From Eledone cirrhosa (lineage: Eukaryota), in assembly GCA_964016885.1 (NCBI GenBank), contig OZ024740.1, positions 222,518,001 through 222,582,000 on the forward strand: a DNA stretch of 64,000 bases, in the 5' to 3' direction. The position numbers and the translations under genes are program-made. The notes below the pieces were generated by a model that saw only the letters and a program-made list of their open reading frames with translations, was not told the origin of the DNA and searched no databases. Below are positions 4,284 to 60,500 of the stretch, one piece after another; position 1 is the stretch's first letter, and each line of letters starts with the position of its first letter.

Positions 4284-4407
4284 ATATTGTATTGTTTATT
4301 ATACATTAAATTTAGCTCTGTAACTTACATAGAGCACTCTTCACTCCTATGACATTTTCAATTTTCAACGGAAACTTCAATACTTATATATATATATATG
4401 TATGTAG

Positions 4408-4456
<49 letters not shown>

Positions 4457-5303
4457 ATGGAATACTATTAGCTTCTCGCTACAACAATTTCTATACTTTT
4501 CATTTATATATATATATAAATCTACATACATATATGCATACATTTACGTATGTATATAGCTATGCATTTATACATTTGTATATATACATGCATTTATATT
4601 TAAGTGTGTAAGGATGTTGATATGATCTATGTCTTCTTTTTTTGGTAAGGAGAACATTTTTGTCGCTAGATTTTATTACCTAGGGAGTTTAAATACCACA
4701 CTTCTGGCTGAAAGCTGACCAGGTTTTCAACTTCATCAAACACTAACGCCGGCCTGTGTGTGTATATATGTGTGTGTGTGTATGTATGTGTATATATAAT
4801 GCTGGCCTGTGTATGTATGTATGTGTGTGTATGTTCACCACCATTGCTTCTTCTTGTCATTTCTGTTGAAGTAGTCCTTACTTTCATTCTCTTTGATTTC
4901 TTTTGATTTTCTTTTATCTCCCTAGGGAATTCGTTGACAAGCTTCTTTAATTTATTTTCTTTGTTTTCTTCATTCAAATCACTGACTGTCTAAGAGACGT
5001 ACCAATATGACTTATGAAATTTACCAAACTAAAGGAGCTTCTAGCGCCCTCAAAGTTTCAAACGCCCCCTTACTGCATACATGCCCCTAACGCCACCTTA
5101 CTGCATAACGCCCCCCCCTGGGGCTATGAAAACCACCCCCTCGGGGGGAAGATATGCCCCCCTCCGTTGAGAACCTTTATTATAGAGGATAGGACAGACA
5201 ACTGTAGATGAGAGAGTAATGACTATGGCAGTAGGAACGTGACCCAATGGTATATTATACGTCCTAACTTCAATAATCCCCACTACCATTATTTTAATCA
5301 CCC

Positions 5304-5490
5304 AGTGGATAGGCAGTATCAGTAGAGAGTCGGACGCCATGCTTTCCAGCATAGTTACGTCCCTTTACGGTCTGAGTTCAAATCCCGCCGAGGTTAACTT
5401 TGCCTTTCATCCTTACGGGGTCGATAAAATAAAGAACCAGTAATGTACTGGGTAATTGCTGGCCTTGTGCCTAAAGTAGAAACAATTATT
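5304..5490 (+). mobile_element. SINE S1 with 16-bp TSD
   Basis: Same sequence as 676-867; ATTATTTTAATCACCC at 5288-5303 and 5485-5500. Confidence 0.9.
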
Positions 5491-5695
5491 TTAATCACCC
5501 TTTTGCCATGTTTGCACTTGTGGGTAAGATTCCAGCACAGCATGGCCACCATTCATCAAGGTTCTTTGTCATCTCCTTTATGAGGTTCAACTTCTCGAAG
5601 TCAGTCTTTACCACTTCATCCCATGATTTCCTTAGTCTCCCTCTTCCAGTTGGTCCATCTACATCAATACACTTCTTTATCTTAATCTATACCTT

Positions 5696-5902
5696 TTAAC
5701 CATTTTGATATCAAACTGTCTGAAAATTGTTCATTTTGAAATGTTAATATTCATCTAAAATCCTCCCATAATAATTTTTTTAGTTTATATTCCAATCACC
5801 AGCTCAATAATAACAAACATAGTTACATTACTAAATCTCTTCAAATTCTTGATTATTTTCAAAATGATTATTCGATATATGATATTGTAATGAAAAGGTT
5901 AA
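5696..5902. mobile_element. TTAA-flanked (piggyBac-type) MITE, degenerate
   Basis: TTAACC...GGTTAA termini; shared internal CAAATTCTTGATTATTTTCAAAAT motif. Related copies at ~6150-6373 (inverted), ~12157-12366, ~14610-14878 and ~57967-58864. Confidence 0.55.
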
Positions 5903-11053: not shown

Positions 11054-11056
<3 letters not shown>

Positions 11057-28320: not shown

Positions 28321-29743
28321 TAATGACTCATCCATCATTTCTGATAAAGCTGACAGCAAAGATATTGACTGTATCACATATATGAGCCTTCTATAAAGCT
28401 ACCCACATATAATTTCTTTCATTTCATCGCAATGAAATGTATGGTGTTTTGACAAGTTTATTTACTATACTTATTTTATCAACTCTATTGTACTTCAGTT
28501 TTTTTGTCTGTAACTTTCTTCATCATATATCTGACTATTTCATTTCTCAGGATGACTTATATCACTGACAAAACTACATTCCAAAATCTAAACACACTTT
28601 TAACAGTAAAAAAATACTGTAGCTAGGAACATTTGCTCAAGGCACCTGTAATGTTGTGCTCATTTATTTCAGACCAGTTTCTATACACCTTCATATAAAG
28701 CTGACGAGTAATTAGTTAATATGCTGCAACTATTTGCTTAATGACATGCTGTATCCCCATTCTTTTGTTATAGATTAGTATAGGGTGTTTCTATTTGAGG
28801 ACTAACATGCTTTATTGACATCAATGCTTCTGGCCACTTTAATTCTCAAATTTTTCATTCCTTATTCTATATTGTGCTGTTTATGGTGTGAGAAAAATGT
28901 TAATGTAATACGTATTGTGCGGAGAAAACTGATAGAATATGTTTTAAAAGACAGGGATATAGCTTGAATCATTCTCATAACCCATTTATCAACTTATAAC
29001 TTTCTCCAGCACACAAAAGAAAACAAAAAACATGATCACTGACAAATGCTTTCTTCTTGTTGATGAATATAAAGTAGAGAAGTTTATCCTTGGTTAGATA
29101 AAAATAGTTTCTGCAAAGTAATTGACCAAGAAAGAGAGAATAAGGAGAGATTAATGCAAAGACTATGCTACAGTATATAATCTCTTAAAAGATTATATAC
29201 TGTTATCTAGGCCAGTCTAGTTTCTGGCTACCAGCTAAAGTATAAAATTTTATCTCTAGAGCAAAGGTGGTCAATCGTTTGCACACTATGTACCCTCATT
29301 CGCAATAACCTTTTTAAAAATATTCTGTTGCATCCCCATAGGAATTTCTTAAAGTATCAGACTTTCATTTATATTTTATTTTATAAATTATTTTATGGAG
29401 AGAACAAAATGTTTAAAAGCATTTTTATATAGGGATCTATTTAGTGTCTTTGATAACGTTGTGTTAATCACAGGCAATACCAGTAAACTTAGAGATCAAA
29501 ATAATACACATATTGCAGCTTTGAAACAATAACTGAGCTCTGAGGTGAAGGCCGATAAGTAAAGGTTGCTGATCTTTTATAAAATCATGAACAAAAGTTT
29601 ATTCTCCTGCATGCCAAAGACATTTTTATGTATGCCATCTTGGGTATACATACCATAAGCACACCACTACATCTATAAAGTAAAAATCTGTAAATAGGAA
29701 TTAAGTGTGTGGTTCAGCAATTCATTATTAATAATTGTTTCAT

Positions 29744-32577: not shown

Positions 32578-32591
<14 letters not shown>

Positions 32592-34076: not shown

Positions 34077-34149
<73 letters not shown>

Positions 34150-34783: not shown

Positions 34784-34964
34784 TACATGGTACTCTGTTA
34801 ACCATCTTTTGATCTTATATTATATTTATACTCCAGTCCTATAAACTGTTGAGTGCTATTTATTCGATATATGCATTGCTTTATTGAGCTACAATAAAAC
34901 TCACCTCCTACATTATATATATATGGCGTGGTAGAGTCGGAAATGCTCTACTACAGAGATAGGA

Positions 34965-35639
34965 GCTAAATAACAAAGGAATTGCGGTAAGGAACCAGAT
35001 GGACTATAACGCACCAGAGAACTCAATACTTAGGGTAGTAGAGTGGGAAATAGGAAAATGTATGACCCCCACGACAGAGCTCAAGCCGTTTCGACGGCTA
35101 TTTCTGGACTAACTACATATAGCAGATGTGTTAAACCCCTTTAATTTTGTATCAGTTTTGTAATTTCTACAAGTTTTTTCTATTCTCAACTTATTAACCT
35201 GTAATTGTAAGATAGCATTGTGATTTTTTTATTCATTTCTCACTATCTAATTTTATATATTTTTTTATTTCTTTCTAGTATCTTTTATTGTCTCCTACTC
35301 TCATTCGATTTACCTATTCTATAACCTCCCTCCTCCACTTCATACACTATCCTTAAAATCTGCTGTATACATATCACTTTCAACGCTTGACCGCTCCACT
35401 CACTCCCCTATTATTCTACAGGCAAGTTCAGCCACCCCTACCACCCACCAAATGCCATGATGGACTTATTTGTGTTTACAACACATATTAACCAATCCTC
35501 TTGACAACTACAATCTTCCCATATAAGGAAGTACCCCCTTGACAAATTCGGCTATTTATTCACCAGGCTAAAAATTCTAATTTAGTCCAGAAATAGCCGT
35601 CGAAACGGCTTGAGCTCTGCCGTCGGAGTCATACTTTTT

Positions 35640-35643: not shown

Positions 35644-35681
<38 letters not shown>

Positions 35682-35807
35682 AAGTTTTATTTAAATTGTT
35701 GGGTTACAACGAGTAAATATTTATAACTGATATAAAAGCACTCAACAAGTATTTGGAGTATATTTACGATATTAAATAAATGGAAATTATATTTATAAAA
35801 CCATATT

Positions 35808-35873
35808 TATTTCATTATATATATTTCAGGGATATCATATTGAAAATATGTTATGCCTTCTTCAGACAAAATA
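35808..35873 (-). ncRNA. Type I hammerhead ribozyme (pLTR family X)
   Basis: Minus strand TATTTTGT-CTGAAGA-AGG..CCT-GAAA-TATATA-TA-ATGAAATA. Family copy at 57066-57131. Confidence 0.8.
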
Positions 35874-37211: not shown

Positions 37212-39390
37212 CTAGATTTTAAATTTATATTTATATTTAAAAGTTGAGTTCAATCTATGTCTGCAGCAACTGAATAAATTTGTCCGTAAATTAAGGGAAT
37301 TTTTAGATTTTAGTATAAAGAATATCTCCTCCGCGCAGAGGTCACATGTCTCAGAGGATGAATTAAAAGGAATCCCTCTTGAGACTATATTCCAAGCCGT
37401 CGAATATGCAACGTTATCATGCCTAAGTTGCCAGAGTAAGCCTGATAGCGATGTTGAAGATTTTTTGCTTGGATCTGTGAAAGAATTCTTGTGGTTATTA
37501 TAGCGAAGTTTAAATTCTGTCGAGGTGGAACCAACATAGTTAAAAGAATTTAAGTCCGTTTTAACATTACAGTTGTATATTATATTTTTAACTAAGCAAT
37601 TGTTATTTAACGGACATTTAGATCTATCTCTACAGTTACATTTGTTAACTTGGATATTATTTATGCTATTATCGGTATTTTGGCTAGGTTTTAAATTCCT
37701 ATTATTTATTCTATTAATATTTTGTGCTAAATTTTTGGTGGATGAGTAGGTTAATTTTATAGTATGTCTATTGAAAATTGAGTGATACCTATGTGTTCTA
37801 GGGAAGCGATTATCAAGAGCATTAAAAAATAGTTTAGCGATGTGGGTTTTAATGTTTAGTGAGAAAGGGGGGCAAACCATATTATATTCCTAGTTCTATT
37901 TATTTTTTGGCTTTTGGAATTATTGTAATGCTTTCTATTATAGTTGTTAAAGTTGTTGCCGTAATTAAAATAGTTGTTATTTTGGTTAGTTTGTCTATTA
38001 TTATCTATGTACATAATTTTATCACTATATCCTGCTCTAGCTAACGCTTCATTGTAATACTGGGCTTTTTCGTCGAAAATCTTTTTATTAAATGAGATTC
38101 TAGAAATACGTTTTTGAACAGAGTTTACTATAGTATTTTTAACAGATCTGGGGTGGTTAGAGTTAAAGCTGACATAGTTTAAGTTTTCATTCAACTTGTG
38201 AAATGGATAGTGAAGACATGTGTTGAGATTTAATGTTACATCTAGGAAATTGACTATTCTATGGTTATTCTCAATTTCTATTTTTAGATTAAAGTAATTA
38301 AAAAATTGTGTAATTTGTTTTCTTTTTCTATTTAGTTCAGAGTTATTATTTTCAACAAGTAAAAGCATGTCATCTCTATATAAACCTCCGGTAGCACCGG
38401 GTATTTTCCTATGCAGCGAATTGATTAAAAATAGGCCCACAAGGTCAGTTACCTGAGCTGAGTCGGATGATCTCATAGTAATGTCGAAATTGTTATCACT
38501 ATCTGCTCTGGTCCATAGTTGGTCATTAAATTCTATCAATGTTTTCCTAGCCGATAAAATAATGTGCATTTCATTGCTAGTTAGGTCTGTATGTTTGAAT
38601 GCGTAATTTAGTGCCTTATTTAGTAGATTAGGGGTAATAGATGAATAATAGTTAGCAATATCTAGTTGAATAAACTTATTATTATTGTTATATTTAATTT
38701 CTTTAAACCACTCAACAACCTCTCCAGTTCCCTTCCACAAGCTCAAGTTAGGTAAACAATTCAAGTTTTTAATTTGCTGTATCACCCTGTCTAGAATGTT
38801 TTTGCTTAGTTTACCCAGGTCCGATTTTGATGGTGCAATCAATCTTACTGGCAGGTCATTTTCAAAATTTCTTTTGTGATCTTTCATATTGATCTTCGGT
38901 TTCCTGGGCACGAAAGGTTGTGTTCTGTTCTCAATTTCCAACTCATGCATTATACAAGATGCCTCAACATTCATTTTCTCAAGCTCGGCCTTATCTGCTA
39001 CCTTGTACTTTTTCCTCAGTTCTTTCAGTATGAGGCCATTATACAAGTCTTTTTGCACTCCATAGAGGTTGTTGGTCTTGTCAGATTTCACCAAGATCTT
39101 CTCAGTTTTCTCTAAGCTCTCAATATTATCCTTAATGCCTTTCAAATATTCCTGGCCTTTGAAGTTTCTCTTGAATTTGACTCCTTGTATGATAGAAATT
39201 ATATCGTTTTCAAAGTCAAATAAAAGTTTGTTGGGGGTGGATTTCTTTTAGATTTGAAAACTTTGTCTAAGTCCGAGACATTTTCATTTATATTAGATTT
39301 ATCAAAGTGGAATGCCCGCCACCTGATTCTCCTTATAAAAGAGTCAGATTTATCTATTAAATGTTTAATAACGTCTTTGTTTCTAGGTAT
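37212..39390 (-). mobile_element. Naiad-clade Penelope-like retroelement ORF (RT + GIY-YIG), 5'-truncated, two frameshifts
   Basis: FIRRIRWRA, KSDKTNNLY, FIQLDIANYYSSI, FDITMRSSDSAQVTDLVG, GLYRDDML, VNFLDVTLNL, SNHP, WFAP/PFS, CNCRDRSKCPLNNNC, IIY..YVGST..FKLRYNNHKNSF, CDLC, LNLR..CRH. Confidence 0.93.
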
Positions 39391-39424
39391 AACGATATAA
39401 TTTCTATCATACAAGGAGTCAAAT

Positions 39425-39575
39425 TGTTGTTATTTTTATTTTTATCCTTTACGCTCTTTCCTTCATTCTCTACACGTTACAGTATTATACACGCCACGCA
39501 TCTCAACGTACACCCACCACCGGATCTTGTTACTCGGAGATTTACGCATCTGCATTGTCGAGGCTTCCAAACGAC

Positions 39576-39632
<57 letters not shown>

Positions 39633-41106
39633 CGAAGGAAATGTGGTAAGGAACAAGGTGGACCATAACGCACCAAAGTACTCAATACTTAGGGTAGTAG
39701 AGTGGGTAATAGGAACGAGTAGGACCCCGACGGCTGAGCTCAAGCCGTTTCGACGGCTAATTCACCGTCGAAACGGCTTGAGCTCAGCCGTCGGGCACCT
39801 ACTCGTTCCTATATATATATATAGTGGAAAATCAAAGAACTTCCTTAGTATAGTAAGATATATAGTAAGAAAAAAGCGAAGAATGACTTAACGGGTGTTT
39901 GGTGATCTTAAATAATTCAAATCTTTATAGGCAGTGATGTTTATTTGTATTCCACATAAACTAGTCTCATGGCTCAGGCCAGGCAGAGAAATGGACAAAA
40001 TTTCATATCTTACTTAGAGAGCAATTGAAAGTTGTTATCAAAGGGTAGCTATTCATAGAGTTCTTCAAAAATGTCACCTGGCCCATGCCAGAATGGAAAT
40101 ACAGACATAATACTGGTAATGATGATGAATAAAATATTTATGTCTCTATTATTTGAAAGAGCTCTCACCTTAATCATAAGTGTAACTTAACAACAATTGT
40201 AATGATAATCATGATGGTGACAATGATGATAATAGCAACAACAATGATACTCAATGTCATCATAATCACACTCATCATCTGCACCACTGTTATCATCACC
40301 ACCATCATCATCATCATCATCATTATCTTTGTCTTTGTCATCACCATTATATCATCATTGTTATAATTATCACCTTAATCCTTTTCATTATCATCACCAT
40401 TGTCATCATCACCATTGTCATCATCACCATTGTCATCATCATCATTCTCATCATCATTCCCATCATCATCGTTGCCATCATTATCACTTTCATCGGTGCA
40501 TTGGCAGTATTGGTAGAGGGTTGGACATCCTGCTTTGACGCATAGAGTTACGGCCCTTGCCATTCTGAGTTCAAATCCCGCCGAGATTAACTTTGCCTTT
40601 CATCCTTACGGGGTCGATAAAATAAAGTACCAGTAATGTACTGGGTAATTGCTGGCCTTGTGCCAATAGTAGAAACAATTATCACCTTCATCATCTTCAT
40701 TATCATCGTCACTCTTGGCATCATCATCGTTGTCATCAACACCATCGTCATCATCACCATTGTCATCATTACCATTGTCCTCATCACCTTTGTCATCATC
40801 ATCACCATCATCATTGTCAGCAACAATTTAAATTTTATTTCTGTAGTGAAAATCTTCAGCATCATCATCGACATCATCAACCTCACCTTTATATCATCAT
40901 TATCATCATCATTGCTGTCATCATCCCCTTTATCATCATTATCGTCATCATCTCTTTCATCCTCTTCATCATCATCATGATTGTCCTCATAGTCATGGCC
41001 ACTCTTACCTTCCTCCCTTTCGTCTTTCTTTACATACTTTACTCTTTCTTTTCCTCCCACTCATCTTCCCTATCATCAGTACCACCACAGCCACCATCAT
41101 CATCAT
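39425..41106 (-). repeat. Right arm of ~1.7 kb inverted duplication
   Basis: Reverse complement of 32578-34300. Confidence 0.95.
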
Positions 41107-42423: not shown

Positions 42424-42581
42424 TATAGTTATAGGAATAGCCAAAGAGTGCTTAGCATATTCCTATAACTATAACGGCTCTGTAGTATACTAGTTATCCT
42501 ACATTGAGCTAAAAACACACTGTCATACCAAGGGCAATATATCAGCGTGTCTGGCAATATTGATATATTTGTCAACGAAAC
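42424..42581 (+). mobile_element. Minimal PLE end in (TA)n: 16-bp inverted repeat plus tail
   Basis: TATAGTTATAGGAATA (42424-42439) and TATTCCTATAACTATA (42458-42473), followed by the UU-bulge hairpin. Confidence 0.65.
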
Positions 42582-42685
42582 TATATACATATATATATAT
42601 ACATACATATATATATATATGAAAGACGTAAAATAAGAAAATTTTAAAAAGAATTTAAAAAATTAACTTACTTACTAAAATTTTC

Positions 42686-42767
42686 ACTCCAACTAATTAG
42701 TTTCTGCAATGGGATAAAGACAGTTACGTAATATAACCGTCGAGAATTCATTGCGTCATCAGGGAGT
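42686..42767 (-). ncRNA. Type I hammerhead ribozyme, palindromic stem III
   Basis: Minus strand ACTCC-CTGATGA-C-GCAATG..CATTGC-A-GAAA-CTAATTAG-TT-GGAGT, inside a 25-bp inverted pair (42618-42642 and 42840-42864). Confidence 0.85.
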
Positions 42768-42970
42768 CTATTCTCAGGTAAGTCTCCAGGCAATGCGCGG
42801 ACACTGGGGACTCATATAAAAATAATAATAATTCGGTAGATTTTCTTATTTTACGTCTTTCATATTATTGTTCTGCATCCTCCTGCATTGAACCACCTAG
42901 GTACTATTACATAACTTATGTATTTGCTAGCATTAGCGTACATCTGTACGCATATGTTAGTAGATATACT

Positions 42971-43062
<92 letters not shown>

Positions 43063-43148: not shown

Positions 43149-43240
43149 TCTCCTTTGCTGACGATCCGGGATTTGACTACTGATTTACCAATTGATGGTG
43201 AAATATATTTCTTTATTCAATGAAGTATATACAAAGGAGA
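43149..43240 (+). ncRNA. Type I hammerhead ribozyme
   Basis: TCTCCTTTG/CAAAGGAGA stem I; CTGACGA at 43158; GAAA at 43200; stem III ATATATTTC/GAAGTATAT; AUA triplet; irregular stem II. Confidence 0.8.
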
Positions 43241-43769
43241 TTAATCATCTTTAAAAGGTTTTGAAGTTCTCGTTAAACTTTAATAGGACTGTCTGGATGC
43301 CCTTGCCAACATCAACGACGTTTACAGTGTGGACTGGGAGGTTTTTACGTGTTACCTACATGGCCACATTACAGCATCGTGACACCTACATGACCTCATT
43401 TATTTAGGACTGGATGTTATGGTACCAACATAACTTTACAGAGAAAGGGTGGTGTTGATAGGGGCGGGGCAGTTGGGGTAGTGGGATGGGGGTGTATATT
43501 TGATTAAGAGGTGCCTACTGACTGTAGGTTTCACTTTGTACTTAGGCAAGGTGGGTTTTCTGTATTACTGCAAAACACCAAAGATCTCGGTCCAGTGACA
43601 TTGTCTTAGAGAGGTGTAAGTGTGTAAGGTCAGAATTTATCAAATCGTCCCAGGTTTTTCTGGGTATGCCTACTCCGTAACTTCTGTCAATTTTGATCGC
43701 CCTGCATTTTTTTATACAAAAAAAAAAAATTAAAAAATAATAATAATGATTTCTTTATTTATTTATGTG

Positions 43770-44172: not shown

Positions 44173-44218
<46 letters not shown>

Positions 44219-44221
<3 letters not shown>

Positions 44222-44406
44222 TGTTTCTACTTTAGGCACAAGGCCAGCAATTACCCAGTGCATTACTGGTACTTTATTTTATCGACCCCGTAAGGATGAA
44301 AGGCAAAGTCAACCTCGGCGGGATTTGAACTCAGATCGTAAAGGGACGTAACTATGCTGGAAAGCATGGCGTCCGACCCTCTACCGATACTGCCAATCCA
44401 CTGACC
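44219..44406 (-). mobile_element. SINE S1 inserted in (TAA)n
   Basis: Full-length reverse-complement S1 flanked by AAT repeats. Confidence 0.9.
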
Positions 44407-44649
44407 TTATAATAATAATAATAATGTTTTCTTTATTAACCACAAGGGTTTACATAAAGTAGACATTAAGGACAGTACAGGACAATACAGGACGGTACAA
44501 ATGGGCATTTCTGCGTGTAAAAAAAACGGAGGTTGAAATAAAATAACAAAGAAAAATTCCCCAATAGGGGGGATACTTCCGAGGGACATTTGTGGAGAAA
44601 GCCCATTAAAAGACCACAGTGGCCCTGGCCACCAGGGCAAGTGCCCTCT

Positions 44650-47030
44650 CCCAGTTTTCCACCTTTAATTTACAGACACATACTCAGAGAAGGCCCATTC
44701 ATTCGGGCCATACTTGCTTCTCTCACCCATCTTTCAACAAAATGCTGGGAAGAGAGTACTTCCCTCTCTACCCTGATTTTCCTTTTCAAATGAAATTTGA
44801 AAAAGTTAATCAGGGCATCACCGAAGAGGTAAGTGCTCGTCTTCAGCCCTTTCAAACGTGTCCACCATACTATCTCTTTCGCCATGGCCACCAGACAGAT
44901 AAAAACTGCCTGCCCTCACCTCTTCGTATTCTCTTAGTGTAGTGCCGATCGCCTCGATGTGTTTGGCGTTCGACACCACTACGGTGACATCGTCGGCATA
45001 TGCTGACACGGATCTTCCGCATCTTAGTTCGCGCGGGACCCCCCCTCAACGTCTCCAGTTTGTGCAGTAATGGCTCGAGAGTCAATACGTACAATAGGGA
45101 CGAGAGGGGACATCCTTGGCGGACCAAGCGCATGATGTTGAACGGTTCCGAAAGGTGATCCTTCACTCTCACTACAGAGCAGATGTCGCTGTGCATGGCA
45201 GCGGTCCAGCTTCTGAAGGCGGGCCCAAAGCTAGCCGCCCTCAGGACTGCCGCTAGGTAACGATGGTCGACCCTATCGAAAGCTTTCGACTGATCTAAAT
45301 TGATCAAGGACCCACCCGTGCCAGGTTCCATAGCTACTCTCTCTACGATGTATCGCATGAGGTGGAGGTTGTCGTGGGTGGATCTGTCGAGAATGGCGCA
45401 TGTCTGTGCCTCTCCCACCAGACCACCAACGACAAGCGCCAACCTCATTGCTAGCACCTTGGACAAAATCTTGAACTCTGTGTTTAGCAGAGTTATGGGC
45501 CTAAAATTATCTATGTTATCCCCCTTATTCGGATCCTTTCTCAGCAGCGCCACAGCTTCTCGGCTCACAGAGCTGGGAATTGTCCCGTTCTGTTGCCAGT
45601 TGCAGTAGATGTCCGCCAAGCGGCCTCCGAACAAGTCTGGCATCTGTACGTAATGTTCATAGGGCAGATATTCCAAACCAGGCGAATTACCTCTTGTGCC
45701 TCCCGTACTTCAGCGGCTGTTATCAGCTTTTCGCAACACTCCGCCTCAGTGGCCGAGAGCCGCGGCAGTCCGTCGAGATAGACACTAATGTCCATCCCTC
45801 GATCCTGCCCGCCCCTGCCCCCGAACAGCTGTGCGAAGTGTCGCTGAAAAGCTTCACACATTTAACCGGGATCGAGTACCTAACGCCCGTCGTGGTCCAC
45901 CAAAGACCGGATCGTGGCTTCGTTGCCACTACGCGCCTCCGCCACTCGGGCCCATTGAACGGCTTTCGTCCCCTCGTGTCTGAGAGCACGCACCCTAGCT
46001 CTGACAACGCAGCCTTCGTGCTTTGCATTGAAGAATTGGTGAAGGGCCTATTTCGCCGCAAGTACGTCGGTCGCGATGCCTTTGCTAAGCGCCTCGTCTA
46101 ATTTTCTAACTAATTCTCCCTCTACTCTATTTTTCTTTATTGCTAAAGCCTTACTAAACCTAATGGACTCTATTCTAATTGCTCTTTTCAGAGCAAACCA
46201 CCACTTGTTGTTGACGATGGCCCCCGTCAACGCCCGCTTAACTAGTTCGCTAATCCGGTCTCTGGTGAGGATGCGTTTAGCTTCCAGTAGCCTGGTCCTC
46301 GTCTATGAAGCCTATCTAAGTAAAGCACACAGATCACGAATTTGTGGTCCGTGTAGCTGACTATCTTGAATTGTGGACAGCCTATGCTAGACCTATCTAT
46401 TTCCCTACAAAATACTCTATCTAGATATGATCTGGATGACCCTATGCGATGTGTCCAAGTCCACATTGACACATTCGGGAAATCCAATCGGTACCTGTCA
46501 GACAGTTCAAAACGCCTGAGCAGGTTGGTGAGGCTCTTGCACCTTCCTCCCCTATCCGCTAATCCCACACAGTCCCAGCGTGCATCTAAGATGCCGTTCC
46601 AGTCGCCCACTAACACTAAAGAGCGGGACGTTCCTAGAAAGGTCTCCAGACGCCGGAAGAAATCAGGCCGCCCTGCTCCTGTCGTGGAATAGACGGCCAC
46701 TAGCCTGAAAGCTTGCCCGTCCCCGCTGGTCATGTCTAGCATCACCAACTTACCTTCTGGGTCCAGGAAGATGGCCCGTATGGCGAGATCCAAACCTCTC
46801 CGAAAAAGCACAGCAGCTCCTCCCCCCGATCCCGGACGGCTGGGAGATGCGTACACATCGTAGCCGCCGAAGATCGGTGCGAAGGCCCGTGCTTTGGAGA
46901 TTCTGGTCTCGCTGATGGCCACTACATCTATGTTTAGTGACCTGTGGTCGTTGAGCAGGTGGCCCTCCTTCCATGACGACCCCAAGCCAAGCGCATTTAT
47001 GCTGCCTATTCTGAGTGAGGTGACGTTGAA
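44650..47030 (-). pseudogene. LINE ORF2 (APE endonuclease + RT), frameshifted and internally deleted
   Basis: LRIGSINALGL, ISETR, VGDWN, SYLDRVF, TDHK, GYWKLN; NFRPITLLNTEFKILSK, LDQSKAFDRVDH, RQGCPLS, YADD. Confidence 0.92.
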
Positions 47031-47743
47031 ATGGAGTGGAAAAGATGGGAAAGACCACTTACCTTCTCGTAGAGGAAGGATGGTTTGTCCATCCTTTTCA
47101 CCACTTGTGGCCTCCTCCGGAAGGATGTCCTAATAAATCCTCCTGGAGATTGTTTGTCGGAAGTCTCCGATTTCTTTGGGTAATTTTTGTTTTAGTGTCG
47201 TGTACGTTTTCTGTGTGATGCGAGTGATTTGTATGTGTGGAGGTGGTGTGAACCTTTGGGTTGTTATGTAGTCTTTTTCTGTGATGCTGGTGTTGTGTTG
47301 GATGTAGTGTAATAATTGGTTGTTGTTCAAATTTAATGCTGTGTAGTGTGTATCGTTTTGGTTGTTTTGTTTTGTTTGCGTTTGTTGTGGGTTTCATTCT
47401 GTTACGCTTTTTGGTGACTTTTGTGGTGTTGGTGTTTGTGGTGATGGGTTTGGTGATGCTGGTGTGGATGGTGGCATATCTGTCCTAACTTTTTTGTTTG
47501 ATAGTTTATTTGTTTCCCTCCATATTTTGTTTTTGGAGGGGGAAGGAAGAGAATTTTTCTTTTTTGGTTTCTTTTTTTCATTTTTCCTGATACCGCTTCC
47601 CACTCCTCGTCGTCACAATCTGTCAGCAGTTGCTATAAGCCGGGAAGTGGAAAATCCTCCACAGGCGTTGGTTTTGCTTGTGGCGTGGTGGATGGTGTAG
47701 GCGCTGGTCCTAGTTCTGGCGCGTTGGGTGGTGGTGTTGTTGG

Positions 47744-48682
47744 TTATTCTACTGTTGCTGCGGTTGTTGCTGTTACAGTAGCTTCTGTTGTTGCTGCTAC
47801 AGTTGTTGCTGCCATCTCTGCTGCTGATGGTGTTGATGGTTGAGTCACTGTGGTTGGTAAGAGAGGTGGCCTCAACCTTTTAGCCTGAGGGCAGAAAGCC
47901 CTTAGGTGGGTTCCTTCACCACAAACGACACACCTAGGCCTTCTGCCCTCGACGATTACGGTGAGGTGGCTGCCGTCAGTGAGATCTATTACCTCTGAGA
48001 TCTCCTCAATGCTTTTATGGTCCGCTTGGATCAAGAGCGCCATCCCAGATCCGGACCAGTTCTCCTGCTTTTCTTTCGCTATTTCGATTATCTTGGTGTT
48101 GGCCTCGATGCCGGCGAGGACGGCAGCCATTAGCCAGGGAATTTCGATGGCCGGTGGAACGTGGGTCACCCCGATCTTCACGAGTTTCTGGCCACAATAG
48201 CTTGGGACGAGTGTGAAGTCGTCACTTCTTAATGGGGCCATGGAGTGTTCTCTGGCCTTCTGTGGTGTTTCAAAGAACACGTCCACGGTTCCATATTTCT
48301 GCCCACGTCTGATGTGGGTTTCTTTTGCCCACACATGTCCCAAAGCTTTTTGGATTTGGGACGCGGATGCCCGTTCCACTCGGCGCGATTTTATGTTAAT
48401 TGTCCGATAAGATACGGTGCATAGGCGACGATGCTCCATTTTATTAGGTGCGCGATGGGTGAGGCTGACCCTGTACCAATCTTTCTTTACCATTCTTTTG
48501 GCTTCTTCTAATTCCTCCTGAGTTACCTGGATCGCTTCGCACATTTTTGCTACTCTCGCAAAAGACAGGGTAGTTTTCTTAATATCATTGTTGTTGTTGT
48601 TATCGTTATTTTTGTTATTGTTCATTTTAGTTTCAGTTGTGGTGGTGGTGGCGTCAGTGGTGTTCGGTGTAGAAGAGTTCAT
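47744..48682 (-). CDS. LINE ORF1 (gag-like, CX2CX4HX4C zinc knuckle); Thr/Pro-rich sequence continues past the stop
   Basis: VEGRRPRCVVCGEGTHLRAFCP. Confidence 0.85.
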   Translation of the reverse strand: MNSSTPNTTDATTTTTETKMNNNKNNDNNNNNDIKKTTLSFARVAKMCEAIQVTQEELEEAKRMVKKDWYRVSLTHRAPNKMEHRRLCTVSYRTINIKSRRVERASASQIQKALGHVWAKETHIRRGQKYGTVDVFFETPQKAREHSMAPLRSDDFTLVPSYCGQKLVKIGVTHVPPAIEIPWLMAAVLAGIEANTKIIEIAKEKQENWSGSGMALLIQADHKSIEEISEVIDLTDGSHLTVIVEGRRPRCVVCGEGTHLRAFCPQAKRLRPPLLPTTVTQPSTPSAAEMAATTVAATTEATVTATTAATVE

Positions 48683-49278
48683 TTTGGTTGAATTTATTTC
48701 GATATCACGAGTTAATTTATTTTTTTCTGTTGTTTCTGTGTCGCTGGGGTGGGGTGGCGGCTTTAAAACACGCAGTCATTGGTAATGGCGGGAAATGAAT
48801 GTCTGCCTGAGACAAATTTAAAATATTGCTACTGCTTATATTTTTAGTGTTGGCAAACGTAGTAATATTTACAATGGTGGTGTCGGTGTGAGGTGTTAGT
48901 TTGTGAGGAAGGTGTGACTCTGTGACGGCCATGATTTTTCAAAGAAATTTTTTTTTTTTGTTTGATAATTATAAAAAGATTAAATTTTGGGCTCAAGGCC
49001 CCAATCTTTTTGAGTGTCTTTTCAGAAATCAATGTATGTGCACTTATATACAGTTAACAATAAAAAGTTTCCATAAATGGCAATTTTAAACAACTGAAAA
49101 TAACAAACCTTTGCGGAACTCACAGTGATACGATTTACAACGTAGGTCGACAATAATAATAATAATAATAATTTTTTTTTTCTTTTTTAAATGATAATCA
49201 ATGTGCTGTATTAACTGGCTTACCAATGCACACTGTGAATTTATTTGCCCTCGGAGTCAGGAAGACACTCGGCATATA

Positions 49279-50920
49279 TTGTTCTACATGGATGACCTGA
49301 AACTATTTGCAACAAAATGATGAGCAATTGCAAGGGCTATTATCCACTGTGAAGCAGTTCAGTTATGACATTAAAATGGAGTTTGGACTAGATAAATGCG
49401 TCAAAGCCACGTTCACCAGAGGAAAGCTGCTGAAAAGTTCAGACATTAATCTTGATCGGGGGAACGTGATAAGAGAACTTGATCAAGGGGAAACTTACAA
49501 ATATCTAGGTGTTTGTGAAGGAGACGGAATCAAGCACTCGACAATGAGGGATAGGATAAGGAAGGAATGTTGCCGCATAGTAAGAGCAATCTTAAGAACG
49601 GAATTAAATGCAAGGAATAGGATCGATGCCATAAACACGCTTGCCATACCAGTAGTAACCTACAGTTACAATGTCATCAACTGGTCAAGCACAGAGATCC
49701 GTAGGCTCAATACAAAAATTAGAAAATTCTTAACCATGCGCAGAATGCATCACCCTAAGGCAGATACATATAGAATATATCTCCCTAGGAAAGAACGCGG
49801 ATGTGGCTTAATCCAGTTAGATATTGCGTTGAAAACTGCAACAATTGGATTATCTACATATCTAAAGGTATCACATGATTGGGTGATCAAACTCATTTTG
49901 AAACACAAAAGCATCAAAAGATGCACAAAGATACAGTAATGAACTACAAATATCAGAAGTCCCATTTACTGCTGAAATGAAAAAACACAGAAAAAGCAAA
50001 GCAGGTAAAAGTAACTGCAAAGAAAGAGCTGCTACAGAAACTGGCTAAGAAATGGCAAGAAAAGTATCTGTATGGAAAATACCCAGAAAGAGCTATCAAT
50101 CCTGATGTTGACAAAACTTTAACCCATCAGTGGTTGGCATCCTCTGGACTGAAATTGGAGACTGAAGGACTGATTATATCAGCACAAGATGAGTGTCTGC
50201 CAACAAAAAATTACCAAGCCAACATAATAAAAATTGCAACCCATTATGCTGTGTATCTAAAAAACAACCAAAGACCATTGATAATATAATTTCAATGTGC
50301 AGTCCTATAGTTCCAAGCCAATACCTAAACAGGCACGACAGAGCTGCACAATACATACATTGGATAATGTGTAAGCATTTTGACCTGCCCCATCAAAATA
50401 ATTGGGGGGGGGGGAGCATAAACCACCTACCGTACTTGAAAAAGATCACATCTCAATACTGTGAAACTTTAGCATCCCCAACAGACCGAAAAATAAATGC
50501 AAATAGACCTGATATAATACTGAAGGACTTTAAAAAGAGGGTATGCCTGCTAATTGATATGTCCGTTCCAATAGACAAGAATGTTTCAATAAAAACATTT
50601 GAAAAATTGAGCAAGTATAAGGACCTGGAGTTAGAAATTGGAAAAACGTGGAAATTGAGAACTAAAACAATACCAGTGGTTGTAGGCCCTCTAGGAATGA
50701 TACCTATGGGGTATAATGATTACTTATCGCAAATCCCAGAAGAAATACAAAAGATGGTACTAATGGGAACTAAGGAAGATTCTGTCAATATAAGTACATC
50801 AGAAGTCTAAACTCATAAAGATGCATGTGTGTGTATGTATGTTCTTCCTTGTTGTGTCTTGAGGTCACTGGTTGTGACTTGGTGATAACTCGTATGAACA
50901 TAAAGCAAGATAAATGCAGT

Positions 50921-50977: not shown

Positions 50978-52725
50978 CTTTCTTTATTAACCACAAGGTT
51001 TTACACAAAGTAGACATGAATGACAGTAGAGGACAACAAAGGATGGTGCAAATGGGCATTTCTGCATGTAAAAAAACAAAAAAACAGAGGATGTAACAAA
51101 AAAAAAAACAATGAAAAATTCCCCAATAGGGGGGAGACTTCTGAGGGCCATCGTGGAGAAAGCCCATTTAAAGCCACGGTGACCCTGACCACAGGGGCAA
51201 GTGTCCTCTCCCAGTTTTCCATCTTCAATTTACAGGCATATACACAGAGTAGGCCCATTCACTTGCCCATCTTTCAAAAAAATGCTGGGAAGAGAGCACT
51301 TTCCTCTCTACTCTGATTTTTCTTTTCAAATGAAATTTGAAAAAGTTAATCAGGGCATCACCGAAGAGGTAAGTGCTCATCTTCAGCCCTTTCAGACGCG
51401 TCCACCATACTATCTCTTTCACCATGGCCACCAGACAGATAAAAACTGCCTGCCCTTCCCGGCTAAAGGAAGAGCATGGGGCAATCCTCACGATGGACTC
51501 AGCTGATCCGTTCTACATGCGACAGCAGGTGTTTGACATAAACCCACAAGTCAGCAATGCTTGGACACTGGACGAGTGCAGGGAGGACAGTTTCGTCACC
51601 CAGTATGCATCTCGGACATCCCCGGCTGACGGCACTTCCATGCCTGTAGAGTTTATCCTGAACTGGCAAAGCTCCTCGGTAGCAATGCCAGTCCAGGAAT
51701 TTCTAAAAATTGTTCATGGGCCCCGGCCCGAAAGTTCTTCCGAAGAGATTGGCTAGTTGATTTTCATCGACAACTAGAGTTTCCCAAAGTACGTCGTCGT
51801 TCTCCCCCTCCACTAATACTCTATAGAACGCCAAGGTGGAGTTTCCACCGATCACATTGCCCGACTGGTTGAGCGCCATGAGTGCCTGAAGACATTCCTG
51901 TCTCCAAGCGCTCCCTCTCGGTCTTCGTTTGACCCAGGACTGCAGCTCCATCAAGGAGACGAGCTGGGGAAAGACGCATCTAGCAAATGGCGACCACACC
52001 GGATCACCGTCGAGGAAGAGGTGGAGATGTCGTAGCCTGAACACGTGTCTGCGCATCATCAGCCATGGCATGCCCAGCCCTCCACGTAGCGGGTGTTGAT
52101 AGCAGATGGACCGCCTGACCATCGGAGCGAGTCCCTTCCACAAAAAGCGAAAGAGCAAATGCTCCAGCGCAGTCAGGCGGGGCTTAGGACAAGGTACGAC
52201 GGTCAGGCGGTAGTAGATGACGGACACAATGTATACATTCGCCACCTCCGCTCGACCTTTCAGGGATAGCTTCCTCTCCGCCCATTTCTGGGTGAGAGAA
52301 GCCACCCTCTCTGTCACTTCATCCCAGTTTTTGTCTGTCTGGAGGTCCGGACCGAACCAGACCCCTAGCAATTTAACCGGTCCATCCATCCAGTGCCTGA
52401 CGATGCTGTTGGACGGCATGGAACCGCCTCTCCAGGTGCCAAGCTGCAGGCCCACTGACTTTTCCTGGTTGCTCATTGCTCCTGTCACCGCTTTGTATTC
52501 TCTTAGTGTAGTGCCGATCGCCTCAATGTGTTTGGCTTTCGACACCACTACGGTGACATCGTCCGCATATGCTGACACGGACCTTCCGCATCCTAGTCCG
52601 GGCGGGAACCCCCCCCCCCCCCCCAACGTCTCCAGTTTGTGCAGTAATGGTTCGAGAGTCAATACGTACAAGAGGGACTAGAGGGGACATCCTTGGCGGA
52701 CCGAGTGCATGATGTTGAACGGTTC

Positions 52726-52759: not shown

Positions 52760-53682
52760 GAAGAAGAAGAAGAAGGATATGTATATATGATGCGCCCTGT
52801 AAATATAATGTCTGCCAAATTTCATGTGTATCAAGTCCCATGAGGTGAGATAGAATGGATTATGGAGAATGAAAGGAAATCAACAAACACACAAAATAAT
52901 TTTTCTAAATATCATTTGTCTTCTACTATAGCCTTGTGAGTGAATTTTAGTTGACAAAAACTCTGCACAAGCCTATTGTTTATACGTGTATGCCTGTGTG
53001 TGTCTGTGAGTGTATGTGTGTTTATGTCTCATACCTTAACAGACAAAAATGATTCATAAAATAAGTATCTGACATGAAAAGTACATTTTAAAATAATTAC
53101 AGAATTTGATATGATTCACTAAGCCCCTTTCAAGGACATTCTCCAGCATCGCTGTAGGTTAATGGTATAAACCAATTAAAGAACAAAAGAAAGTTAGTAA
53201 GATGTAAAAATATAGGAATAAGTAATTAATGTAACACTTCACACTAACCAACAAGAATTTCTAAATGAAATAATATCAATAACACACATTTCTTTGTTAT
53301 TCTATTGTTTACTTATTTTATAGTCAAACTAAAGTAAAACTAGTTTGGTTCACTGTGAATATTAAATTGTGGAACAACCAATTCAACAGGTTCAACTGGT
53401 TTTTAGAGAAATGTATTAGATTGCTTTATATATATAGTGTAAGTCCAGGTATGTCTGTGTGGTTGTGTGGCTAAGAAGTTCACTTTCTATCTATCTGGTT
53501 AGGAGTTTGGTCACACTACACAGTATCTTATGCAAGAACAAGTATCTTTTACTGTAGATGGAAACCGCATCAAAACCGGCTGAATACACACGCACATACA
53601 CACATGCAGATTATAGTTTTACTTTGGGAGAGTCATGCTGCCAATAAAAACACACATAAACCTGTTGGGTATCACTTCAAGG

Positions 53683-53868
53683 GGGATTGGCAGTATCGGT
53701 AGAAGGTCGGATGCCATGCTTTGCAGCCTAGAGTCAGGCTCGTTTTATAGTCTGAGTTCAAATCCCGCCGAGGTTAACTTTGCCTTTCATCCTTACGGGG
53801 TCGATAAAATAAAGTACCAGTAATGTACTGGAATAATTGCTGCCTTGTGCCAAAAGTAGAAACAATTA
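53683..53868 (+). mobile_element. SINE S1
   Basis: Same sequence as the other S1 copies. Confidence 0.9.
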
Positions 53869-54424
53869 TAATGATTTCTCAGTCAGTGTCTATTTGATAG
53901 ATGTTTATGGCTACTGGCATATCACAATGATTGCATAACTGCACCTATGATTGCATAAGAATCTGATGAAGTCACATGAATAACCATGTAACAGAATTAT
54001 ATATTCAATAAACAATTATGGTGAAATAATTCTGTCTTTTCTATCATTATTTGATAAATGAATATTCATTATCACTTACCTAGCATAAACTACTGAAGTG
54101 CTTTGGATCGCTAGGACTTGCTTATCCTCAGGAAGTAACAACTAAGATAAACAACACTCTTCTATAACTATATATATATCTAACCTGAATGTATTTTCGT
54201 TGCTTTGGTGTTATGTAGCTAGGCACGCCTGCTGCAGTTTTCAATTTGTCACGCATTCTAAAGTATGTTAATTACTCTAAGGTGATACAGCCTTATTGAG
54301 TGCTTTGCTGCACAAACCTAACTGCATATCGTTAGCTTTGCCACAACAAAAAATTTGATTTTACTAAATTTCCATTTGTATATATATATATATATATACA
54401 AGGGAGCTTCTATATATATACATA

Positions 54425-56687: not shown

Positions 56688-56743
<56 letters not shown>

Positions 56744-56745
56744 GG

Positions 56746-57172
56746 AAAGTTATATTTAAATTGTTGGGTTACAACTAGTAAATATTTCTATATATATGTA
56801 TCTATCTCTATTTCCTCTCTCTCTCTATATATATATATATATCTCTGTTTCTTTACATGAAGTTCTTCTCTTTATCTATCTTTCCATCTCTCTATTTTGT
56901 TCCATGCATTTCTTCTTTTTCTTCGTTTTCTGTCTTTCTTTCCTTTTTTTCTCTCTTTCTTTCTCTCTGTGTACAATTTTTTCACTGCCAAATCAACCTT
57001 TTCAAATACAAGTCGATGTTGTTACGGTATGTCGAATCTATTTATCTATAAAACTGTTTATATTGTATTTTGTCTGAGGAAGGCATAGCATATTGTTAGT
57101 ATGATATCCCTGAAATATATATAATGAAATAAATATGGTTTTATAAATATAGTTTCCATTTATTTAATATTG
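56746..57172 (+). mobile_element. pLTR family X: inverted tail piece plus forward tail-less pLTR
   Basis: 56746-56787 matches 35681-35722 in the same orientation; ~56900-57172 is the reverse complement of ~35765-36020. Confidence 0.8.
57066..57131 (+). ncRNA. Type I hammerhead ribozyme (family X)
   Basis: TATTTTGT-CTGAGGA-AGG..CCT-GAAA-TATATA-TA-ATGAAATA. Confidence 0.8.
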
Positions 57173-57224
57173 TATATATATTTATATATATATATATATA
57201 TACACGCATGAAATGTATAGCCTT

Positions 57225-57304
57225 ACACATGCTGATGAACCGAGGTTATTCCATTTCTGTCAACAAATTACTGGCGAAACATCTCTTTGGATTTGTACGT
57301 GTGT
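57225..57304 (+). ncRNA. Type I hammerhead ribozyme
   Basis: ACACATG/CGTGTGT stem I; CTGATGA at 57232; A-CC..GG-C stem II base; GAAA at 57276; GUA 57295-57297. Confidence 0.75.
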
Positions 57305-57468
57305 TATATAGTTATAGAGGTATTTATTTACGCTTTAATTTATATTTTTAATTATCGTGTCTATAGTCTGCCTTTCATAGGTTATAGATTCCATACACTG
57401 GTGGTTTTTTCCCTGTTTTATTGATAACGCACTATATATCTCTCTCTGGTGTGTTACCTTTTCAACAT

Positions 57469-57507
<39 letters not shown>

Positions 57508-60500
57508 TTCTTAGGTGAACATGGTCTTACTATTCTAAACTGGTACTTACTATTTTAGACTAATAAGACTAATTTCACCTAAAGAACTCAATACTTGGTG
57601 AAGTAGAGTGTATATATTGTAAAGCGTTAGTGCCTTATGTCTGAGGTCGCATCAAAACGATGTGAGTACGGCCATTTATATATGTGCATGAATGTATATA
57701 TACATATATATGAGTGTGTGTATATTTTTACTGTTTACATCCCCCCTCAAAAAAAGAGATTGATGAAATAAGTACCAGGCTTTAAATGAACTCAATATGA
57801 CGAACTAAATCCCTTCAATATGGTGCTCCACTATAGTCACACTCTAATTATGGAAATTAGTAAAAGCAAAAAATAAGTAGTGGTTGTTTAGGAATAGATG
57901 TAAATATGTCCAAGATTAAGTTTTGATTAGACTTGAGTGCCTAGCTCGAAAACTGTTACTTACATCTTAACCCTTTTTTTTTCCAAACTGCCTGAAACTG
58001 ACACCTCAGTACTATGATAATGAACTCTATATTTTAAAATGTAATTGCAATTATCAAAGAACTTTCCATTAAAATTTCATCTAAGAATCTTTGTGAAGTT
58101 CTCTCTCCTATTGGCCCTTTCTCCAGAGCAGAGGGGGCTCTTCAGTTGGAACTATTAACTACATTTTTTGTAATGGTGTGACAAAAATGCACCCAGTATA
58201 CCTTGTAAGGTTGTTGGCATCAGGAAAGCACCCTGCTGCAGAAACCATGTAAAAGGGTTGAGAGGACCCTTAGTTGTGTCAATGGCACAACAACCACTCT
58301 AAGGCTGGTTATCTACACTAAATGCACTGCAATGTTATTGGTAATAAGAAGGGCATCCAGTCACAGAAAGCTTGCAGACACAAAGGTCTATGAGGATACT
58401 ACAATTATGTTAAGGTCATGACAGCCTCCCTAGAGTTGGTGATCTACATAATAAATGCACTATGTGAAGGCTGTAAAACTTGGTGAATCCCCACTTATGT
58501 CAAAGACATGACAAACTCTCTAGAGATGTTGCCATGAGAAATTGTACTTGGTAGAATGCAGAAACATATGTAAACGAGATGCAAACCACCAGCCTTTCTA
58601 GGAGGTCAGTTGCCCCATTTCAGTGCAGACTTGGTCTAAAATGACCCACTCAACTCTTGCTAGCAAGAAAAGTGGACGTTAAATGATGATAATGATGAAG
58701 TCGATGATGTTGATGGTGATGAATCTTTGTTAAGTCATGTTTCAAGCACCAGCTTAATAATGAGAAAATGAGTTAGATTACTAAATCCCTCCAAATTTCT
58801 CATTATTTTCCAAACTGTTTCCAAATAGCGTCTTTCATTAGAAATATTAGAAATAAAAAGTTAAAAGCCTTTCTGAAGGCTTCATTGTAAAAATCTATTT
58901 ACCTTTCATTAGACCATATAGGCATCGAGCTTGTCTCAGAAATCATATGTACAAACTAAAGTAACTGTCTGAAAAGGTTAGCAAAATTTGCACTTTACCT
59001 ATCCACTACTAGAGAATAATGACTAACTCATCTCTTATTTCCAACTTCTTTACATGTAAATTACTAATGGTGTAATATTGTTTATGTCCGTTTGTTCTTA
59101 AGATTAGTAGGGCATTGTTTCTAAAGCATAGGCTAAAATAAATACTTTGTGCTAAGTGTATAACATATATTGTTTACAAATTTTACCTAATATAGGCATG
59201 GAGGATGACCGCAGTAGAAGAAGACCATGTAAATCATGTGTAGAGGTGGGAGAGCTGACCTCAGATTGCTGAAGTGAGTGGAGGAGATGACGAAAGACCA
59301 TGACGAATAGAGGGATGCTGTGCTAAATAGGACCCATCCCACCCTTGTAAGCAGGGAAAAACGGACGTAAAATGATGATGATGATGATGATAATAGATCT
59401 CTCTATGTGGAGTGGGGTAAACAATTTATTTTGGTATTTTAAAAAATGACAGTCACACGTAATACAAGTTTTACCTTTTGGTTGTTCACAACTATATCAC
59501 TATAAAAATAAGAAATTCTTCATATTAGAACATCTAAATAAGTTCAATTCTAGTTTTTAAATCAGAATCCCATTATTCTTTTACAAGAAATATTTGTGGG
59601 GAAGTAGTCTGCTGTCAATAAATCATATCTTAGCTCTACACCACAGATAGCAAAAGTCAGCATCACCTTTTGAAATTCATTGATGGTTCAATAAACAAAA
59701 ATGAAATCTTTTTTCAATGAAGTGAAAATATAAAAAAATATTGTTTAATGTCTACAGATTAAAGAAACTTAGCTTAAAACGGAAATTAGAAAATATTCTT
59801 GAAGAAGAAATAAAATTAGAATATTTCAAAACATAAAATTTTACAAATATATTTCTATAAAATATATTTATATTCAAGATGTTTTAAAATAATTCATAAT
59901 AGGATTCTGGAAATAAAATTTATACATTTCTTTTTAAGTCACAAGAATACATATTTTGTATACTCATACATATAAGTAAATATGTATATACACAACTACA
60001 TTTTCTTCGTGTCAGTGTGTGTATATATTTAATAGTTTATTTGATATCATATAATGTACAAATATAATTATTGTTAAGCTTTCTCACATAAACATTCAAA
60101 CATATGATTTATATTTTGTGCATAAATTTATTGCCTATTGTCTTCTATAATCAGAAGCAAGAATTTCTACAGATTTTTACTTAATATGGAAAACAAGATG
60201 TTCAAATTCTTTTTAAAATCTATGAAAAATTTACCATAATAATAATTCTTTGTTTACTATTACTAGCAATGTCCATTCATTCATACAATGAACACACATA
60301 CAAAAGCAACCAGTGTCCATTCATTCATACAATAAAATCATATAAAAATTTATGGTTAAAAACAGAACAAAGTTATATAAGAATGACAGGGAGAGACATT
60401 ACACAATATGTTATGATTTCGAGTTAGAATTCTCATTTCATGCCTGTTTTCTCATGGAAAAAGCCTGCAGCTTATCCTGGTTACATGTGATATTAAGTAA

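Follow-up and report, generated by a model that had tools for sequence, protein, structure and literature searches.

A duplicated bulged hairpin next to both insertion ends of Hydra-clade Penelope-like elements in Eledone cirrhosa

We analysed 64,000 nt of the genome of Eledone cirrhosa (GCA_964016885.1, contig OZ024740.1, positions 222,518,001-222,582,000 of the forward strand; this whole stretch is called the window), in which a short bulged hairpin recurs beside insertions of Penelope-like elements (PLEs). Copies of these elements end at one of two sites, termed here the short end and the long end, and intact elements carry two hairpins, HP1 and HP2, between a hammerhead ribozyme and the start codon. 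On sequence evidence, the bulged hairpin is a real RNA element that is duplicated and tied to both insertion ends across the Hydra clade of PLEs.

Hydra-clade elements and hairpins in the window

The window contains a Hydra-clade PLE open reading frame (ORF) of family B, which lies on the minus strand in three frame pieces (37212-39396) and covers a reverse transcriptase (RT) as well as a GIY-YIG-like endonuclease at the C terminus. In an intact family B copy (L016), this is a single ORF of 742 aa that has the Hydra-clade feature SDKT (DKG changed to DKT), RWR at the N-terminal RWK position, a conservative variant also found in locus L279, and the linker CNCRDRSKC (CxCX5C) followed by the GIY-YIG-like core. 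The element has a hammerhead in its pseudo-long terminal repeat (pLTR) and termini at (TA)n, and DKT, RWK and the CxCX5C linker are Hydra-clade marks according to section 11 of Craig 2021 (PMC8557442). By these features family B is a Hydra-clade PLE; a Pfam search of the Hydra ORF pieces returned no match. The family is young and abundant: of 31,902 candidates, 136 scored copies show 95-100% identity. Families A, C, M and N run into Hydra-type ORFs that are ~35-51% identical to the family B ORF, and none was linked for families G, H, J, K and L. A sequence-only reading of the window had regarded the carriers of the hairpin as unrelated, which does not hold, as every ORF-linked family is of the Hydra clade and the carriers at 34006 and 57586 are close kin. 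By its distribution, the hairpin marks Hydra-clade PLEs and their non-coding tandem derivatives.

That reading had listed nine hairpin strings, all of which we located; eight of them stand and one, at 43258, is spurious. The first, HP1 of a long-end copy of family G (4315-4335, plus strand), follows a type I hammerhead (4208-4280, plus, predicted cut after 4280) and is supported by its fold and by the covariance model described below; in other copies, the short end starts 8 nt 5′ of this hairpin. Family A forms an inverted insertion in (TA)n (33900-34077; short end of the minus arm at 33900, long end of the plus arm at 34077), in which a 5′-truncated copy retains the 3′ half of the hammerhead (33958-33980, plus) and HP1 (34006-34029, plus), with (TA)n junctions 8 nt 5′ of this hairpin in 13 copies. 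A second family A copy has HP1 at 35021-35044 (minus; short end of the partner arm at 35644, plus), and HP2 of family A is exposed by read-through of the long end at 34945-34966 (minus). Because an inverted segmental duplication (32580-34300 and 39425-41106, 96.7% over 1.7 kb) that flanks the Hydra ORF also copies the family A insertion, the HP1 at 39680-39703 (minus) and that at 34006 represent one event. A further family A tail fragment (3872-3946) has lost part of the 5′ strand of HP1.

Family C contributes a hammerhead (34717-34777, plus) and HP1 (34830-34854, plus), and its long end at 34915-34925 occupies a short TA site within a family A copy's leader; Hydra ends are frequently nested within one another's microsatellites. 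HP1 of the ORF-bearing family B element is at 35740-35759 (minus), between the long end at 35679 and a type I hammerhead (35816-35873, minus), and in intact copies HP2 lies 9 nt past the long end. Family B also forms an inverted insertion (56741-57172) with the long end of the minus arm at 56741, a hammerhead at 57066-57123 and the short end of the plus arm at 57172, just before HP1. The remaining hairpins are HP1 copies of family H (42477-42509, plus; short ends 7 nt 5′, hammerhead upstream in other copies), of family K in a 5′-truncated copy (54274-54301, plus) and of family L, which is related to family A (57586-57609, minus), together with that of family I (42870-42893, plus), which has a compensatory UUC/GAA core. 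The latter lies in an inverted insertion (42621-42973) with the short end of the minus arm at 42621, a hammerhead at 42691-42767 and the long end of the plus arm at 42973.

The spurious string (43258-43278, plus) follows a family J hammerhead (43153-43231, plus) in a copy that breaks off before both real hairpins, which lie further 3′. It does not fold, its 4-bp outer stem is incomplete in other family J copies and was created by a deletion private to the window copy, and the loose descriptor class to which it belongs occurs at chance level in held-out DNA (11 matches versus 6-12). Separately, family J (L217, L220-L225) contains an internal (TA)n that separates the hammerhead region from the short end and may be an older terminus that was captured. 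A strict hammerhead descriptor found 2 sites in the window, and the remaining hammerheads were placed by looser patterns. The distance from the cleavage site to the hairpin, initially given as 26-57 nt, is 34, 25, 52 and 56 nt for the hairpins at 4315, 34006, 34830 and 35740 but 55 to more than 130 nt in other families.

Family I is a non-coding tandem unit of 544 bp that contains a hammerhead and both hairpins (4 units of 544-545 bp, longest ORF 35 aa). It is young in L290 and its own-genome matches, has a long-stem-II hammerhead and resembles a retrozyme-like passenger.

Structure, enrichment and duplication of the hairpin

The consensus of the hairpin is N-CUC-[stem-loop]-U(U/C/A)-GAG-N′, mostly followed by ACU, with a length of 20-35 nt. 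The bulge had been described as a 2-nt 3′ bulge kept as UU; its first U is indeed fixed, but the second base varies (UU 32, UC 12, UA 6 and UG 1 among 51 instances), and one own-genome family has a single-U bulge. A strict descriptor (RYTC, an inner stem of at least 3 pairs, a TT bulge and a complementary outer stem) matched the window 9 times, compared with 0, 1, 0, 0, 0, 2, 0 and 0 times in 8 block-wise dinucleotide shuffles. Because the descriptor was derived from the window, we repeated the search on held-out DNA of the same genome, consisting of 40 arbitrary 10-kb stretches (400 kb). Here it found 10 matches versus 1, 0, 0, 1 and 2 in shuffles, an enrichment of about tenfold. Variants with a TA bulge (4 versus 0-1) or a TC bulge (5 versus 0) also exceeded the shuffles, and AA, CT and GT bulges as well as a mirror-image 5′ bulge gave 0 matches in the same 400 kb.

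A covariance model trained solely on 30 instances from other organisms gave 9 matches in the window at E<0.1, of which 6 are among the nine strings listed initially and 3 are additional copies on the minus strand (35021, 39680 and 34945). The model missed the hairpins at 42477, which has a long loop, and 42870, which has the UUC/GAA core, as well as the string at 43258.

To characterize pairing, we compared the instances with permutations. Inner pairs 1-3 are Watson-Crick in 45, 34 and 30 of the 51 instances, which were selected with no pairing criterion, versus 26.1, 16.0 and 13.5 after permutation (0/5000 permutations each); inner pair 4 was not significant in the same set (129/5000). In an alignment of 30 of 50 instances, the register of which was chosen with the closing pair, 97% of cells are paired and 32 double-sided changes occur, compared with 24-54% pairing in slid registers. 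Compensatory changes had been claimed for both stems. They are borne out for the inner pairs, whereas the CUC/GAG core is invariant in the 30 rows and UUC/GAA of family I is the single compensatory core case seen. HP1 has 6 G-U and 0 A-C pairs, which favours folding in the sense-strand RNA; for HP2 the counts are 3 and 3.

The hairpin described initially for the element tails is present there, but it is just HP1 of a pair, the second member of which is not visible in tails. Intact family B copies have HP2, built to the same design, ~90 nt past HP1 and immediately ahead of the ATG. Scanning metagenome contigs yielded 78 loci at 32-39% identity, 48 of them with a leader of at least 150 nt. A core descriptor matched these 48 leaders 53 times, compared with 0.86 on average in shuffles; searches of the opposite strand and for the mirror form each matched in 1/48 leaders, and ORF windows matched in 5/530 cases. 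After clustering of the leaders to 30 independent families, with hairpins located by a sequence-only anchor, two hairpins were found in 22 families, one in 7 (several on short contigs) and none in 1, and the distance from HP2 to the ATG in metagenome leaders is 21-57 nt. Among six published Hydra consensi of the PMC8557442 supplement that were inspected by eye, in the part available, 3 are canonical; coral and sea cucumber consensi carry the motif, one of them with both copies and a 3′ end 2 nt before HP1. HP2 was predicted beforehand past the long end of family C and was found 8 nt further on in a read-through copy (L334), upstream of a Hydra ORF. L372, considered as a read-through copy of family G, is not a read-through. 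In family K (L233, L235, L238), the base of HP2 is kept and its loop has a self-complementary AT-rich insert of 70-90 nt, suggesting that loop length is free.

Insertion ends and distribution across clades

To relate the hairpins to the element ends, we mapped (TA)n junctions with an alignment-free approach, a map that omits the long ends of families with no known HP2. Among the 187 junctions placed, the start lies 6-10 nt 5′ of a hairpin in 159 and 2-13 nt in 173, compared with 50 of 321 possible TA/AT starts in the latter range. A BLAST-based map of six families assigned 145 of 164 microsatellite ends to positions no more than 12 nt from a hairpin, with exceptions mostly in families M and N. 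At each terminus, the template has 2-8 alternating U/A bases that match the (TA)n target. In the metagenome loci, shared sequence breaks off 0-6 nt ahead of a hairpin in about 10 cases, where the flank is a microsatellite or rich in TA; the rest of the tabulated ends are contig ends or divergence between relatives. The initial proposal of a conserved cis RNA element, possibly an RT-binding or priming signal, thus gains from the covariation and from the fixed position at termini, but the relevant landmark is the terminus rather than the ribozyme, and, judged from the Neptune-type loci, the element is not PLE-wide.

Family I long ends (42974-43003; L286, L289, L290) often have a variable (CT)n run between the element and (TA)n, at a place where the template contains just a short CU repeat. 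These variable runs suggest reiterative slippage at initiation, reminiscent of telomerase. Families D and L have comparable (AC)n or (CT)n runs.

Outward-facing inverted pairs of copies combine the two ends in a regular manner. We found a short and a long end in 44 of 48 pairs, a short end with another end in 3 and two short ends in 1, with no long+long pair. In loci that had not been chosen for the family in question, 30 of 33 pairs were short+long and 3 were short+other, compared with ~49% short+long expected from 78 long and 58 short ends; the chance of 30 short+long pairs calculated as 0.49^30 is ~5 × 10^-10. Two later families gave 27/27 short+long pairs, in loci chosen for a long end; an anchor for family D proved too short, returned noise and was left out. 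The arms differ by 4.3% within one insertion and by 7.7% between insertions, and the junctions of inverted arms are often imperfect palindromes.

The hairpin is not supported as a general PLE feature, judging from Neptune-type loci and 9-mer counts. Tails of Neptune-type elements, which by zinc-finger motifs make up most of 30 own-genome GIY-YIG loci, gave no covariance-model match at E<0.1; three such matches were obtained in these 30 loci, two preceding a Hydra ORF (L279) and one far upstream in L276. Motif 9-mers occur 4 times in the 584-kb Craig supplement, 2 of them in Hydra leaders. Of 59 matches in an Rfam 15 scan at E≤1, none reached the gathering score and none fell on the listed hairpins as such; the scan left the hammerheads undetected too. 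We found no prior description of the hairpin in the open full-text literature, including the available parts of PMC4209133, PMC6765202, PMC5737381 and PMC3846280, with subscription journals and Repbase notes outside this coverage; the hairpin is thus apparently undescribed before.

Neptune-type elements with no canonical hammerhead core (L250, L253, L255, L261, L266, L269, L276, L277) have a short tail that opens with a conserved nonamer. It lies 3-4 nt past the short-end TA site, at the position that HP1 has in Hydra elements, and may be an analogous signal.

The window also contains broken non-LTR retrotransposon ORFs (44870-48775, minus; 51703-52677, minus; 49301-50810, plus) that are unrelated to the hairpin, with Pfam RVT_1 and endonuclease matches for three of the ORF pieces. 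A short interspersed element (SINE)-like repeat of ~200 bp with (TAA)n or (GAT)n flanks, present in many copies, occupies 659-869, 5303-5490, 29738-29940, 33004-33198, 44212-44426 and 53670-53876.

A putative start signal and its relation to known systems

Frangieh et al. 2024 (PMC11167929), in the part used here, studied PAc, a Poseidon PLE from Anolis, in vitro and found that the two strands of the target are each cut and extended, that the tail is delimited by two internal sites at which RT starts, and that there is a requirement for RNA 3′ of these starts. Because of this precedent, we take the Hydra termini as RT starts. It is likely that the paired hairpins, 6-10 nt 3′ of each terminus, dock the RT-endonuclease on the RNA at two internal start sites. 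The element protein would bind the CUC/GAG stem, the bulged U and the 3′ flank, the endonuclease would cut (TA)n on both strands, and each target 3′ end would prime cDNA synthesis by pairing with the UA patch immediately 5′ of one hairpin. Head-to-head joining would then link the two cDNAs, which would probably be made on one RNA. Starting at HP2, the long cDNA would hold HP1 and the spacer, which together form the tail, and the short cDNA, started at HP1, would include neither hairpin. HP2 would never be copied, so that restoring the full signal would depend on read-through from one copy into its neighbour's leader. Both the tail and the reliance on a tandem arrangement (pLTRs) would be explained in this way. 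Tandem units that are non-coding but carry both hairpins would be mobilised in trans. More tentatively, and with rather less confidence than in the docking itself, we suggest that a telomerase-related RT binds the two hairpins on one transcript and primes both (TA)n cut ends, an obligate, structure-programmed form of twin priming.

Several observations weigh against this reading. The hairpins are predicted to be of low stability (-1.3 to -8.5 kcal/mol), relatedness among the instances is ignored in the permutation controls, and the three invariant core pairs of the 30-row alignment contribute no covariation. Fourteen of the 187 junctions fall outside 2-13 nt, and HP1 of families M and N was re-assigned post hoc from the termini as a long-loop form that folds weakly or in another register; for family M, a stemless tri-loop was dropped for this register once the termini had been mapped. 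Most loci were fetched by similarity, so end frequencies are biased; L174 has no anchor and HP2 of L181 has no CUC. Among the remaining Hydra consensi, one has a stem mismatch, one ends before HP1 and Hydra-1_Obim has no hairpin by eye. The prediction of HP2 was borne out solely in family C, where its bulge measures 3 nt and a single copy shows it, as families G and H have no read-through copy, and HP2 of family K holds its long insert. For the inverted insertions, an arm's own partner was the best or tied match in 6 of 14 cases, and both arms copy the same template stretch, unlike in L1 twin priming, so that displacement or two leader repeats would be needed. Finally, the Poseidon stem-loop as drawn in the part of PMC11167929 used here does not show the hairpin motif. 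A homodimer prediction for residues 1-250 scored zero with an uncertain fold and speaks neither for nor against the proposal.

Other explanations have to account for the same ends. If RT started at HP2 alone and the cDNA folded back, with HP1 serving as a second-strand stop or as a site of endonuclease resolution that creates the short end, then short+long pairs with near-identical arms and often palindromic junctions would follow. Self-priming (PMC3846280) and endonuclease resolution (PMC8557442) have been proposed earlier in the sections used here, and the Drosophila tail is needed for recognition of DNA by the endonuclease, as cited in PMC11167929. We nevertheless regard this explanation as unlikely, as HP1 and HP2 are alike in sequence, orientation, geometry and distance from the terminus, which suggests one mode of recognition, the G-U but not A-C pairs of HP1 would leave it unstructured on the cDNA strand, and both sites are RT starts in vitro for the Poseidon element (PMC11167929). 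The fixed distance and the UA ends would be explained equally well if the hairpins directed cleavage of the RNA 6-10 nt upstream, yielding two UA-ended RNAs that are copied by ordinary target-primed reverse transcription, and the elements already use one self-cleaving RNA. Random pairs of such RNAs would, however, produce long+long and short+short insertions, of which the 48 pairs include 0 and 1; moreover, the Poseidon protein initiates internally with a product size unaffected by 3′ extension (PMC11167929), and no ribozyme family matched in Rfam 15, leaving this form of 3′-end formation quite improbable.

That HP2 lies so close to the ATG, and that the Poseidon ribozyme requires protein (PMC11167929), would fit binding of the ORF protein or a host factor for another job, such as translation, packaging or ribozyme chaperoning, with the termini adjoining by way of UA-rich spacers. 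We consider this very unlikely given the excess of junctions near hairpins over the possible TA/AT starts, a hairpin-ribozyme distance that ranges from 25 to over 130 nt and the retention of both hairpins by the non-coding family I. The view that inherited similarity or chance produced the pattern, with no selected structure, can point to carriers that are all of one clade, to a short and weak fold and to one spurious instance in nine, but it is already largely refuted: flanks and loops cannot be aligned whereas the inner pairs covary, and the mirror and opposite-strand controls are null (1/48 each). An accessory helix of the hammerhead was ruled out by the variable distance and the remote second copy, and a DNA cruciform by the asymmetric bulge and the sense-strand G-U bias.

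PLEs are the sister group of telomerase RTs, and the paired hairpins bear on their template choice, one-sided tail and inverted ends. The paired-hairpin proposal offers a mutable, clade-wide element of 20-35 nt with a precise prediction, namely a start 6-10 nt upstream of each hairpin and one cut end for each, which makes the origin of the PLE tail directly testable. The hairpin also provides an annotation marker for Hydra-clade leaders and non-coding derivatives. If twin priming is programmed in this way, a signal outside the cDNA would account for the tail and the inverted pLTR, for the dependence on tandem copies and for retrozyme mobilisation in trans, slippage on the alignment patch may lengthen flanking microsatellites, and other clades may share the logic with other motifs, for example the Neptune-type nonamer. 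The hairpin would then serve as a portable signal to start an RT with (TA)n as its insertion target.

The Hydra elements resemble Poseidon PAc in having a hammerhead upstream and, on the proposed reading, two internal starts that bound the tail, cutting of both strands and a requirement for RNA 3′ of the starts. The available part of that in vitro study (PMC11167929) located the two start sites but reports no RNA or binding motif, and those starts are located within the ORF, in an AC-rich stem-loop, with no target homology, in contrast to the defined, duplicated and covarying leader hairpin and the TA microhomology at each putative Hydra start. An optional extension at one end of inverted insertions and (TA)n targeting by the Hydra clade were described before for PLEs (PMC8557442, PMC3846280, in the sections used here); there the tail is 30-40 bp long and ascribed to endonuclease resolution, whereas here its 55-120 nt equal the HP1-HP2 spacing and it is almost always present, at one end and not both. 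In L1 twin priming (PMC2837659, in part), both target strands prime on one RNA to give an inversion, as proposed here, but its arms are non-overlapping and its second site is opportunistic, in contrast to the overlapping arms and the two fixed, hairpin-adjacent sites of the Hydra elements. Family I fits the definition of non-LTR retrozymes (bioRxiv 10.64898/2026.07.22.740005), with tandem non-coding units that each carry a type I hammerhead; the part of that report used here names no cis signal for mobilisation, for which the two hairpins are candidates. As far as the sources used here describe it, the hepadnavirus epsilon is also a small bulged hairpin that recruits RT and sets initiation, a function that is putative for the Hydra hairpins. 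The 3′ stem-loops of stringent long and short interspersed elements (LINEs and SINEs), for example eel UnaL2, recruit RT as well. Stem-loops of these kinds are single, and they either template the primer in the bulge or are part of the copied region. The Hydra hairpins are paired and lie 3′ of the start, 6-10 nt beyond each terminus and outside the cDNA.

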